Shown in pieces: positions 1,829 through 20,025 of a stretch of 64,000 nt of DNA. Position 1 is the first letter of the stretch; every line of letters begins with the position of its first letter. The translations under genes were made by a program, and so were the position numbers. The stretch comes from Campylobacterota bacterium (lineage in GTDB: Bacteria; Campylobacterota; Campylobacteria; Campylobacterales; Sulfurovaceae), in NCBI GenBank assembly GCA_034660455.1, contig JAYEJF010000035.1, positions 16,436 to 80,435 on the forward strand. Direction: 5' to 3'. Under the pieces are notes generated by a model. It did not search any database. It was not told the DNA's origin and worked only from the letters and a program-made list of their open reading frames with translations.

Positions 1829-4800
1829 TTATTTCGTCTCACTTGTTAATTTCAATAGTCTCTTTAAACTACTAAATATCTTTTCATTCGGTAAAAAATT
1901 ATAGTAGTTGTCATTCCCACTATGATGCCATACGATATTCGCAAAAAAGTTGCTCTCATCTGTTTCAATGCGATGTTTTAAACCCAATTCAAGTTCCAGT
2001 CGTTTTGTATCAAAGAACTTCTCATATCGTACCTTGCCTCCGATATCAGAAATAGTATACTTCTCCGGTCTGTGCCTGTCTTCAGAGTAATATCGATTTT
2101 CATAAAATAGATTTAAATCAAAGGGTGAAACATGATGATAGAGTGAAAAACGATTTTTGACATAGTCCAATGTATTTAACGATTCGTTTGACGTTAACTG
2201 TAATCCATAGGTAAACATTAAATCATTTTTCGGATAATAGCTCAGTGCATATATCCCATGCATACCATATTGATGATTTTTTTTATATTTACTATAGACC
2301 AAGGGGTCAACAATTCCATCCTCTATCGGGTCTCCACGCATGAAATTTCTAAAGAAACGTAGCCCATATTTATGTATCAAATTTTCAGATAGAGGTTCTT
2401 TTTTGAACAATTCAGCGGATGCATAAATGTTTGTGTGCTCTTCTCTTTCTGTCCCCTGAGCATATCCATTTAACTCCGCACTCAACCACAAATCCTCAAA
2501 AGGAACTCTTGTATACAATTTATTTTTGATAGCATACATCGGGTTGTCATAGAAACGTACAAAAAGATGCTGCTTCAAATAGCGCTCATTGTCCATCTTC
2601 CATCTATGATAAACACCCAGCTCTGGTATCGCTTCAGAGCTACTCTCCACATTATCATCAGAGTAGAGGTCAACACTTTTATACCCCAATTCAAAACTCC
2701 ATGTAGAATCCAGTGACTCCCTGTTGGGAGATCTGTTTTTCACTAAAATGACTTCGAGCTTTCTCATACTAAATACATCTTCTGCAAAAACACCCTGAGT
2801 CTGGGGGTACCTTTCAGGCTGTTCTAGCTTACGCTTCAAAGGATTGAACTTCATTTCAAAAAAACGCATCAAACTCTCCTCTCCTACGGAAGAGATAAAT
2901 GACTCCCGATAAATCTTTTTGTGGGGTAAGTACCTGTAGTGTGTGATTAACTCTCCTGTTGAACTTTTTTCATCAATACGAAGTAACTTGGGTCCTTTTA
3001 ATGTCAGTTGTATTGGTTTTGTCTTTGTCGAGATGAATGAGCGCTGCGTCAAATCTTGCTCTACACGTTTACCGTTTTCATACAAATTAATTCCCAAATA
3101 GTGCGTTGAGAGAGGGGAAATAGTGTTGACCCTGATGCTATGTGCACCTTTGGCTAAAGAGAACTTCTTTACATAGCGCTTCGTGGTTTTATCAAGTATC
3201 ACAGAGAAAGGTTCATTTTCATCAACCTGTACTTCAAAATGTAATGCTTCATAAGGAAAATAATCCGGATGGATCTGTTGTACTTCAAATGTTATATTTC
3301 GAGATCCTTCAAGGTGAAATATCCGACTATCATTACCGTATAATACCGTATGGAAACCTTCTATATTATGTAGCAGTGTTGATCGGGATCTTTGGGTCAC
3401 GGAGACCGGGTTCCATGCAGATACTTTTTCATTAAAATAGCCCATTTCAGAATTTACGGAAACATATTTTTCAAAACTGCTGTATTCGCGTATGATGTCA
3501 AATATCTTCTTTGTATAGCGATCCGTATCAAGATGATTCAAACTATGTGCCTTGGCTTGTGCATGATAGATATCATCTTCGTTACCAAATTCATACTCCC
3601 ATAACAAGGAACTTGCATACGCGAGATTTGCTCCCTCTTTAATCTGGCTAGACCTCTGATAGTTATCAGGGATGTGCAGTAATTGCTCATCGAGTGGTTG
3701 AATCACTTCATCACCTATATCTTTCCTCTCAAGACCAATTAAAAAAGGTTCATCATAGCCATATATCAGCAGTGTATGGTTTCCTTCTCCCAACATCAGT
3801 TCTAGCCTATTATTGATACTGATTGCTCTATTCTCATTGAGGTCTTCAAGTAGAGGGGATATTTTCGTATGCACTACAGGAAAATAGTACTCTTTTTGAT
3901 TGTGGATGATTTTCATCCACCTGTAGCGATCGACTTGTGACATAAAGCGGATATCTAGTCCCAACACGCTTGGTCCTTCTACTTCAATGTGCAAGGGTTG
4001 TTTTAAGGTTGCTTTATGGTGTGTAAATGCTAAGTCCCTGTTTTGCGCATAGATCTCTGAAGCTCCGGCACTATTGTTCACTTTAATATCATTTTTCCAA
4101 ACATTGTTTGTGTAGCTTCTCTTTTGAAGAAGGGTCTGCTTTTGGCGCAAAAGGGCATCATTATCAAAAAGAGTATCATTATCAAAAGTTCTCTTAGGAT
4201 CTATCATCTTCTCGTAGAACTTAAATCTATTTTCTAGCAGTGCCAATGAATGGAGTAGCTCTGTATCGCGTCTACCCCTATCCATCAGCAGCACTATATC
4301 CAATGCAAAGCGGTATTGCCCTTCACGATAAAGAAGCTGTGCCATTTCTCCTAGTGTATCACTATCTGCTGTCTTGTAAAAATATGCTGCAAACCATTTT
4401 AGCCTCTCTTTACTATTTTCAGAAAGATCCAGCAAGATATCTAAAGCCTCTTTTATCACTTGCTTATCATCACTTAGCATCAAAGCATGTATAGCGATTT
4501 GCTCTAGTGTAAACTTCTCCTGATACTGTTTATGCTCTGCAAGAAGTTGTAACATATCCTTGTGATGCAGCTTATCTATATCTATCCTTTTGTTTATCTG
4601 CTCTATTTGCGCATTAAACCACAGACGTAAAGGGTGTGTATGTTCATACCAGGGATCAAATATTTTATTCTCAACTATTTTCGTATCAAGTGTTTTTGCA
4701 AATTTTGCATCACTTCCTGGGTAGTTATCGGTCCATGCAAATAGTGTGTCCCTATAGATACTTTTATCACGCATTTTTAACGTGACTTTGTAAGAATCTG

Positions 4801-20016: not shown

Positions 20017-20025
20017 CCCCCCCCC
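20017..20025 (-). repeat. C9 (G9 on the operon strand) homopolymer in the promoter / 5-prime region of the six-gene operon; candidate phase-variation tract
   Basis: The sequence attattCCCCCCCCCaaatt can be counted directly. The tract lies 33-41 nt upstream of the ATG at 19984. On the minus strand it is immediately followed by AATAAT (20011-20016) and TATAAT (20000-20005). Confidence 0.9.

Follow-up and report, generated by a model that had tools for sequence, protein, structure and literature searches.

The window analyzed here is a 64,000-nucleotide stretch of a Campylobacterota bacterium of the family Sulfurovaceae (assembly GCA_034660455.1, contig JAYEJF010000035.1, positions 16,436 to 80,435). 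It carries six large minus-strand genes built around a PgsB/CapB-type amide ligase and a doubled CapC/PgsC membrane domain. We designate the six open reading frames (ORFs) of 870, 1065, 796, 284, 1369 and 1650 amino acids (aa) A, B, C, D, E and F, respectively (Table 1). The A/B gap is 14 nucleotides (nt), B/C, C/D and D/E overlap by 13, 4 and 14 nt, and the E/F gap is 53 nt; the ORF list gave the same strand, sizes, overlaps and gaps as an earlier reading of the letters made without database searches (the sequence-only reading). This tight packing indicates a single operon with translational coupling, which is what short overlaps imply, in place of the "co-translation" of that reading. In the NCBI annotation (locus tags U9O64_06395 to U9O64_06410) B is named "PgsC/CapC", C, D, E and F are each named "hypothetical protein", and F starts 11 codons further downstream (1639 aa).

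Table 1. Genes of the operon and regions distinguished within their products, in window coordinates.
Feature	Window positions	Strand	Length	Assignment
A	17372-19984	minus	870 aa	divergent CHASE2-type sensor histidine kinase
B	14160-17357	minus	1065 aa	double CapC plus two D-like modules
B, aa 1-365	16263-17357	minus		inner-membrane domain with about 12 hydrophobic segments, formed by two CapC/PgsC modules in tandem
B, aa ~403-630	15468-16151	minus		first D-like pseudo-hydrolase module
B, aa ~664-934	14556-15368	minus		second D-like pseudo-hydrolase module
C	11782-14172	minus	796 aa	secreted or N-terminally anchored, periplasmic
D	10931-11785	minus	284 aa	secreted metallo-amidohydrolase-like protein
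E	6835-10944	minus	1369 aa	HEAT-like region, novel domain and PgsB-type ligase
E, aa 1-440	9625-10944	minus		helical HEAT-like repeat region
E, aa 440-690	8875-9627	minus		domain without detectable structural relative
E, aa 694-712	8809-8865	minus		sole hydrophobic helix of E, directly upstream of the P-loop; putative membrane anchor
E, aa 698-1070	7735-8853	minus		PgsB/CapB-type (Mur-ligase-like) ATP-dependent amide ligase core
E, aa 1071-1369	6835-7734	minus		insert, conserved GMQNIKGTGLDF motif and basic C-terminal tail (alignment conservation)
F	1829-6781	minus	1650 aa	secreted giant, beta-rich modules
F, aa ~440-545	5147-5464	minus		lineage-specific (Campylobacterota) OmpA-like insert, degenerate
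F, aa ~1350-1625	1907-2734	minus		candidate outer-membrane beta-barrel, followed by a conserved ~35-aa tail

The ligase core of E aligned to positions 2-360 of the 380 in TIGR04012, the PgsB model (189 bits, E = 1e-55), in agreement with the PgsB/CapB core attributed to this ORF by the sequence-only reading. No other Mur-ligase model in Pfam or NCBIfam scored against E, leaving PgsB as the sole ligase family matched. The P-loop GGWGTRGKSGTER, the motifs WESMG, TNTYPDHED and NNRADR, and the C-terminal GMQNIKGTGLDF showed no variation among 14 homologues with identities as low as 30%; GMQNIKGTGLDF is probably the counterpart of the C-terminus of B. subtilis PgsB. Relative to PgsB, E is extended at the C-terminus and, by 690 aa, at the N-terminus, and it has an extra insert of ~140 aa. 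B matched the CapC family model PF14102 in two stretches (E = 1.7e-38, 132 bits against a gathering score of 27), as anticipated from the two PgsC/CapC-like modules that had been noticed at its start, and this membrane domain was the most conserved part of B in the alignment of homologues.

D begins with a signal peptide. Its AlphaFold2 model, made from a 55-sequence alignment, had a predicted local distance difference test (pLDDT) score of 92.6 and a predicted template-modelling (pTM) score of 0.90, and Foldseek placed the fold in the group of zinc carboxypeptidases, PghP/YndL and N-formylglutamate amidohydrolases. The PDB matches were an aspartoacylase-family protein (2qj8), YndL with bound poly-gamma-glutamate (PGA; 5onj), the N-formylglutamate-amidohydrolase-family protein Atu2144 and phage PghP (21dc), at E values of 6e-6 to 6e-4; structural matches in a viral library were to PghP, N-formylglutamate amidohydrolase and succinylglutamate desuccinylase/aspartoacylase. 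Characterized members of these fold families cleave amide bonds to glutamate or aspartate. Eight residues were invariant in the D family (H106, D110, R136, D140, H169, H244, E246 and R252), most of them within the invariant motifs P105-H106-x3-D110, Q167-x-H169 and F242-x-H244-x-E246. We infer that this pattern fits a His/acid/His metal site with a catalytic glutamate; the spacing of 63 residues between the two histidines presumably matches that of the PghP zinc site (His40...His103). PghP-type enzymes, including PghP and YndL, are zinc-dependent gamma-PGA hydrolases (PMC4497714). Signal peptide, model and fold matches together support the earlier description of D as a secreted hydrolase-like protein, and the idea of a periplasmic trimming enzyme gains real support from the fold.

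The D fold recurs twice in B, downstream of the membrane domain. By hhalign, the first module matched the D family with a probability of 97.5% (E = 5e-12) and the second with a probability of 98.2% (E = 2.7e-14). The first module lacks the metal ligands, with Phe and Ser at the positions of His106 and Asp110 and Arg at that of His169. In the second, Arg769, Glu773 and Arg841 stand at the positions of His106, Asp110 and His169 of D, and Trp918 replaces the catalytic Glu246; P768, R769, E773, T776, Q839, R841, F914 and W918 were invariant among B homologues. Both modules are thus pseudo-enzymes, since the metal ligands, and in the second module the catalytic glutamate as well, have been replaced. 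As to where these modules reside, the two CapC modules share one orientation, and the membrane loops in five homologues carried 1-4 Lys and Arg residues on the side of the N-terminus and 6-10 on the other side. By the positive-inside rule, which gave the same answer for all five homologues, the N-terminus lies outside, and the C-terminal half of B (~700 residues) is predicted to be periplasmic, in the compartment of the secreted D.

The N-terminal region of E divides into two parts. The first is helical, with a HEAT-like part at about residues 250-440; the Pfam HEAT_2 match was weak, and the E family profile matched designed HEAT-like alphaRep proteins among PDB sequences (positions 253-339, E = 2.8e-11) and no other PDB sequence. 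The second part, residues 440-690, was the most conserved non-ligase domain of the system, dense in invariant residues. Its AlphaFold2 model had a pLDDT of 91.6, and Foldseek found no relative in the PDB at E <= 0.001 (best E = 1.0). Among the best 150 relatives of the N-terminal region, ~43 were stand-alone soluble proteins of ~650-700 aa that ended just past a conserved RFF motif (P0087, P0089, P0090 and about 40 others). In L152 the stop codon of such a gene (13321-15333) overlaps the ATG of a separate ligase gene, whose product starts ~24 aa ahead of the hydrophobic helix. Since E has no signal peptide and its N-terminal region exists elsewhere as a soluble protein, this region is most simply placed in the cytoplasm.

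The two remaining secreted proteins are C and F. C has a single N-terminal hydrophobic segment by hydropathy. F has an N-terminal signal peptide, an internal repeat (residues 167-297 against 908-1036, probability 97%) and, on a crude propensity map, a helix-leaning stretch at residues ~700-900. Compared with each other by hhalign, C and F were weakly related through beta-rich modules (probability 83%), and C is probably built of beta-sandwich-type modules distantly related to those of F. The last ~300 aa of F, in which Tyr and Phe are abundant, showed the strongest beta-strand periodicity of the protein. They contain about 14-16 candidate amphipathic strands, the last of which ends in a conserved (S/T)-W-H-F motif resembling a beta-signal. 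A relaxed Pfam scan of ten F C-termini yielded one match, to MipA at E = 0.12. These features are suggestive of an outer-membrane barrel at the C-terminus of F. Of the earlier description of F as secreted with a beta-barrel-like end, secretion stands on the signal peptide, and the barrel is a candidate suggested by the periodicity and the WHF motif.

F also contains an OmpA-like insert. The equivalent segment of the F homologue in L001 is a true OmpA domain (PF00691, E = 3.2e-11), and an F relative from Sulfurovum (P0085) is named "OmpA family protein". The insert of the window aligned in position with the L001 domain but lacked its signature residues, and most other lineages were gapped there. 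BLASTP found no match between the two segments, so the equivalence is one of position in the multiple alignment only.

The closest relative of the locus, contig L164, was collinear with the window at ~92% identity except for a clean 2,393-bp indel. The junction falls at window positions 10971/10972, within the last codons of D, so that the D frame of the window crosses it and is 11 codons longer than in L164 (284 against 273 aa). The extra DNA (L164 7581-9973) encodes, between D and E, a lipoprotein of 754 aa that contains CarboxypepD_reg and PGA_cap (PgsA/CapA) domains, the latter at E = 9.7e-47. Homologues of this lipoprotein adjoin the cluster in four distant loci (L048, L050, L070 and L069). 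In the window, Pfam found no PGA_cap (PF09587) domain in the six proteins, and tblastn with the sister-strain protein found nothing across the 64 kb. The statement that no PgsA/CapA is present therefore applies to the window and not to the system as a whole: the PgsA/CapA-type lipoprotein, which the sister strain has and the window lacks, is an optional addition. In B. subtilis PgsA is dispensable for PGA, and pgsBC alone give 26 g/L (PMC6029982). The repeated recruitment of a PgsA-type third partner strengthens the link of the cluster to PGA-type chemistry. We saw no PgsE, for which no dedicated search was made, and the 14- and 53-nt gaps and the overlaps leave no room for one inside the operon. 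We also note that the homology of L164 to the window stops exactly at the F stop codon.

We examined how widely this arrangement is conserved. A pattern scan with one genome per GTDB species found relatives of E in at least 545 species genomes (a word-index protein search gave 17), and the best 80 of these were all full-length fusions of ~1,300-1,450 aa. An exhaustive HMMER search with the N-terminal 690 aa of E gave 497 clusters at 50% identity, 229 of them with E <= 1e-30. Carriers among the best 80 were Campylobacterota, Alphaproteobacteria, Zetaproteobacteria, Planctomycetota, Acidobacteriota, Entotheonella, Desulfobacterota (including Electrothrix), Gammaproteobacteria (Methylovulum, Crenothrix, Thiomargarita, Halomonas/Vreelandella, Marinobacterium, Competibacter and Thiodiazotropha) and Betaproteobacteria (Ramlibacter, Polaromonas, Noviherbaspirillum and Aromatoleum); all carriers among the matches listed belong to diderm phyla. 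C, D and F lay upstream of E on the same strand in 43 of the 57 genome loci with at least 9 kb of upstream sequence, and the order B-C-D-F-E was found in 35 of the 57. Since the window proteins share only 17-30% identity with their distant homologues, the figure of 43 is a lower bound. Of 26 metagenome loci, 25 had C, 20 had D, 25 had F and 24 had E. When the metagenome scan was anchored on B, a homologue of A lay directly upstream on the same strand in 41 of the 47 loci with room for it, and C followed B in 48 of 49.

The six-gene arrangement is thus far beyond chance, and its co-occurrence is near-universal in unrelated genomes. The system, which the sequence-only reading had proposed to survey among Campylobacterota, is not specific to them; it is co-conserved across phyla and widespread in diderms. 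Its usual order is A-(REC)-B-C-D-F-E, where REC is a stand-alone receiver gene. In the window and in L164 E precedes F, a rearrangement that the two share; almost all other loci, further Campylobacterota such as L166, L001 and L004 among them, have F before E. One genome, Vreelandella massiliensis, apparently has two E-type genes on two scaffolds (L038 and L075), each beside cluster genes.

The remaining gene, A, appears to encode the sensor of the system. Hydropathy gave transmembrane segments at residues 10-28, 248-266, 271-289 and 293-311, that is, one segment, a periplasmic domain of ~220 aa, three further segments and a cytoplasmic kinase-like C-terminus, the topology of CHASE2 sensors. 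Matches to the WalK/BaeS kinase models (residues 698-823) were weak. Window A had no Pfam CHASE2 match; its homologue in L057 matched CHASE2 above the gathering score (E = 6.7e-7), that in L027 matched more weakly, and HisKA and HATPase_c matches among the homologues were weak. The CHASE2-type assignment made earlier thus holds by topology in the window and by profile only in homologues. In most non-Campylobacterota loci a receiver gene of ~120-140 aa (PF00072, about E = 1e-24) lies exactly between A and B (for example, L093 9603-9992, L103 2979-3341 and L133 9587-9970). It is absent from the window, where only 14 nt separate A and B. We believe the receiver probably acts together with A by protein-protein contact, perhaps on the HEAT-like and novel domains of E. 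Several receiver-domain genes occur at 30338-38064 of the window, 10-18 kb from the operon; these gave generic tblastn matches of ~25-34% identity, and none adjoins it.

The ATG of A is preceded, at a distance of 32 nt, by a tract of nine G residues (G9; 20017-20025, minus strand; read as C9 on the plus strand), which falls in the spacer of a promoter-like TTAAAA-17-AATAAT site. No other G/C run of at least 7 occurs in the 64 kb, where 0.23 runs of at least 8 were expected. Phase variation of surface structures in Campylobacterota is commonly driven by tracts of this kind, and the G9 tract may be a phase-variation switch for the operon. A second, independent assembly has the same G9, which gives no sign of length variation, and promoter and terminator scans of the window returned counts equal to those in shuffled sequence.

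Taken together, these observations lead us to favor, with some confidence, the view that the six genes specify a synthase-dependent machine spanning the envelope, which makes an amide-linked anionic poly-amino-acid (most probably PGA) and exports it. Bacillus PgsB and PgsC suffice for PGA synthesis (PMC6029982). The ligase of E, anchored at the inner membrane by its helix, would polymerize the amino acid in the cytoplasm, and the chain would pass through the double-CapC channel of B. The two D-fold modules of B would receive it in the periplasm, binding or guiding it without acting on it enzymatically. D would trim or release the polymer, C and F would form a periplasmic scaffold and an outer-membrane exit, and A would control the system, in most lineages with its dedicated single-domain receiver.

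A number of observations weigh against this view. With respect to the product, the TIGR04012 score of E is below the equivalog cut-off of 222.7, and B scored 44.7 bits against TIGR04011, whose cut-off is 96; for this reason we regard E and B as PgsB/CapC family members and not as demonstrated functional equivalents, and they may use a substrate other than that of Bacillus PgsBC. D is placed at the superfamily level only, because the PghP model PF05908 matched just one of 46 family members (E = 0.096) and the template-modelling scores of D to known enzymes were modest (0.38-0.56, with 0.56 on the target for 5onj); neither a consistent Pfam family among the 46 members nor any PDB sequence match to the D profile was found. 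No glutamate racemase or other precursor gene was found at the examined loci. The scores below the cut-offs and the superfamily-level placement of D, together with the insert, extension and N-terminal region of E that are foreign to PgsB and a PgsA that is dispensable or missing at most loci, would suit the same architecture with a product other than free PGA: another amino acid or a mixed polyamide, or chains placed on a lipid, glycan or peptidoglycan-linked acceptor that passes B. We consider this unlikely, given that PgsB was the only ligase family matched, that the PgsA/CapA gene has been recruited to the cluster repeatedly, that the nearest fold relatives of D all act on Glu or Asp amides, and that no glycosyltransferase or lipid-carrier enzyme is conserved nearby. 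A separate difficulty is the topology of E, in which a single helix parts the N-terminal region from a ligase that is necessarily cytoplasmic. Because both flanking parts look cytoplasmic, the helix may be a monotopic or re-entrant anchor and not a spanning segment.

The route of export is the other point in question. No family match was found for the C family (45 members) or for window F in Pfam, NCBIfam or PDB sequences. Pfam detected neither the TPR component of the earlier reading nor a porin family in window C and F, the 45 C-family members, five full-length F homologues or ten F C-termini (350 aa). It is possible that the polymer reaches only the periplasm or the cell surface, with C and F serving as adhesin-like or S-layer-like scaffolds and the outer-membrane exit either unlinked or nonexistent. 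The lack of porin, TPR or secretin families would be as expected in that case, as would the repeated beta-sandwich-like modules typical of surface proteins, the predicted binding of some F homologues to peptidoglycan via OmpA, and an F C-terminus that continues into a tail with no terminal aromatic residue. Against it, the 14-16 strands at the end of F and the WHF motif are kept across phyla, the listed carriers are all diderm, and so strict a co-conservation of F beside E speaks for a mechanical role that is obligatory; we judge scaffolding without a linked exit to be quite improbable. Uptake and degradation, in which D and the D-like modules would capture and cleave external polyglutamate for import by F, could account for three copies of a hydrolase fold with one apparently active. 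We hold this to be very improbable, as the two best-conserved proteins are a biosynthetic ligase and CapC, the hydrolase fold is catalytically dead in two of its three copies, the biosynthetic partner PgsA is recruited to the cluster, and the neighborhood has no conserved transporter, peptidase or glutamate-catabolic gene. The stand-alone receiver was the only further conserved neighbor at the examined loci.

Comparison with PgsBCA(E)/CapBCA(DE) of B. subtilis and B. anthracis sets the synthesis-and-export reading against the best-known relatives of its core. There, too, the ligase has a hydrophobic helix just before the P-loop, its CapC/PgsC partner is encoded in the same operon, and a polymer-cleaving enzyme (CapD, PgdS) is encoded alongside, as the candidate D is here. 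The differences are considerable. The ligase here is fused to about 690 aa of HEAT-like and new-fold sequence and has an insert and a C-terminal tail, and CapC is duplicated and joined to about 700 predicted-periplasmic residues with two dead hydrolase modules. Three secreted proteins (C, D and F, of 796, 284 and 1650 aa) are added, as is two-component regulation through CHASE2, the hosts are diderm, and most loci, this one included, lack PgsA.

PGA-type genes in diderms are not new in themselves, as CapsuleFinder, with CapB and CapC mandatory and CapA and CapE accessory, reported CapB+CapC PGA systems in most phyla (PMC5542703). By the CapB+CapC rule the present cluster would probably count as one of them, and CapB with CapC is likewise found in the Gram-negative capBCA loci of Francisella and of PGA-producing Fusobacterium nucleatum. 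Such Gram-negative loci have small proteins and CapA, in a compact layout like that of Bacillus. To our knowledge no Gram-negative capBCA locus with fused giants, a periplasmic hydrolase family, partners of the C or F type or CHASE2 control has been described. D shares the fold of the PghP/YndL (PghL) family and differs from it in its greater length, its N-terminal helical extension, the absence of a significant PF05908 sequence match and the existence of two inactive paralogous modules fused to CapC.

In overall logic the proposed machine is like the synthase-dependent exopolysaccharide systems (alginate Alg8/44/K/E/L, cellulose BcsABZC, poly-N-acetylglucosamine PgaABCD, and Pel), with an inner-membrane polymerization-translocation unit, a periplasmic cleaving enzyme, large periplasmic scaffolds, an outer-membrane barrel (here a candidate) and a dedicated signal input. 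No component is homologous, and the polymerase candidate here is an ATP-dependent amide ligase; D is analogous, not homologous, to the periplasmic polymer-cleaving enzymes of those systems. Neither a glycosyltransferase domain nor a cyclic di-GMP receptor (PilZ, GGDEF I-site or PelD-like) was found in the six proteins with Pfam and NCBIfam. The literature searched contained no description of this gene system, in keeping with the earlier remark that no described system had this architecture. One paper taken up as a lead to CapC, on the Lipocone superfamily (PMC12419801), concerned "CapCone" domains, which are unrelated. What is new is the conserved six-to-eight-gene architecture with its fused giants, pseudo-hydrolase modules, amidase family, two giant secreted proteins for which sequence searches found no relatives, ligase-fused domain and CHASE2/receiver control. 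We see about an even chance that these features define a previously unrecognized class of secretion machine, a synthase-dependent polyamide pathway with a PgsB-CapC core, pseudo-hydrolase guides, an amidase, two new-fold giants as the conduit, a new cytoplasmic regulatory domain and CHASE2/receiver control. Such a class would extend over hundreds of diderm species of environmental importance, large sulfur bacteria, methanotrophs, iron oxidizers, cable bacteria and halophiles among them.

The surroundings of the operon in the window are as follows. Upstream, an inositol-monophosphatase-family gene (20163-20930, plus strand) is divergent from A and is followed by a gene for a SelO protein adenylyltransferase (21836-23554, minus strand); neither is conserved with the cluster. 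Just downstream of F, a 401-aa ORF (520-1725, minus strand) had no Pfam match and was 35% identical to a gene that in L001 stands ahead of MksE and an MksF/DUF3584-like gene. This ORF probably opens an Mks/condensin-like (Wadjet-type) operon that leaves the left end of the window.

PGA biology is known almost wholly from Bacillus, which has no outer membrane, and this gene set offers a concrete and testable answer to how such a polymer might cross two membranes in diderms. It couples PgsB/CapC-based synthesis to at least four uncharacterized families (C, D, F and the N-terminal domain of E), at least one of them without structural precedent, and the pseudo-hydrolase modules of B show cleanly how an enzyme fold has become a domain that probably handles polymer. 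Several carriers have been cultured, which opens the hypothesis to direct testing: Methylovulum miyakonense HT12, Halomonas daqiaonensis CGMCC 1.9150, Vreelandella massiliensis, Desulfocicer vacuolatum DSM 3385, Ramlibacter rhizophilus, Marinobacterium weihaiense and Aromatoleum evansii KB740. Among the carriers are bacteria of ecological prominence that are poorly understood: Thiomargarita and Beggiatoa relatives, Crenothrix and other methanotrophs, Zetaproteobacteria, cable bacteria and Halomonadaceae. If the proposal is true, an anionic polyamide sheath could matter to these organisms for metal binding, for desiccation or salt tolerance, or as the matrix of biofilms or filaments.

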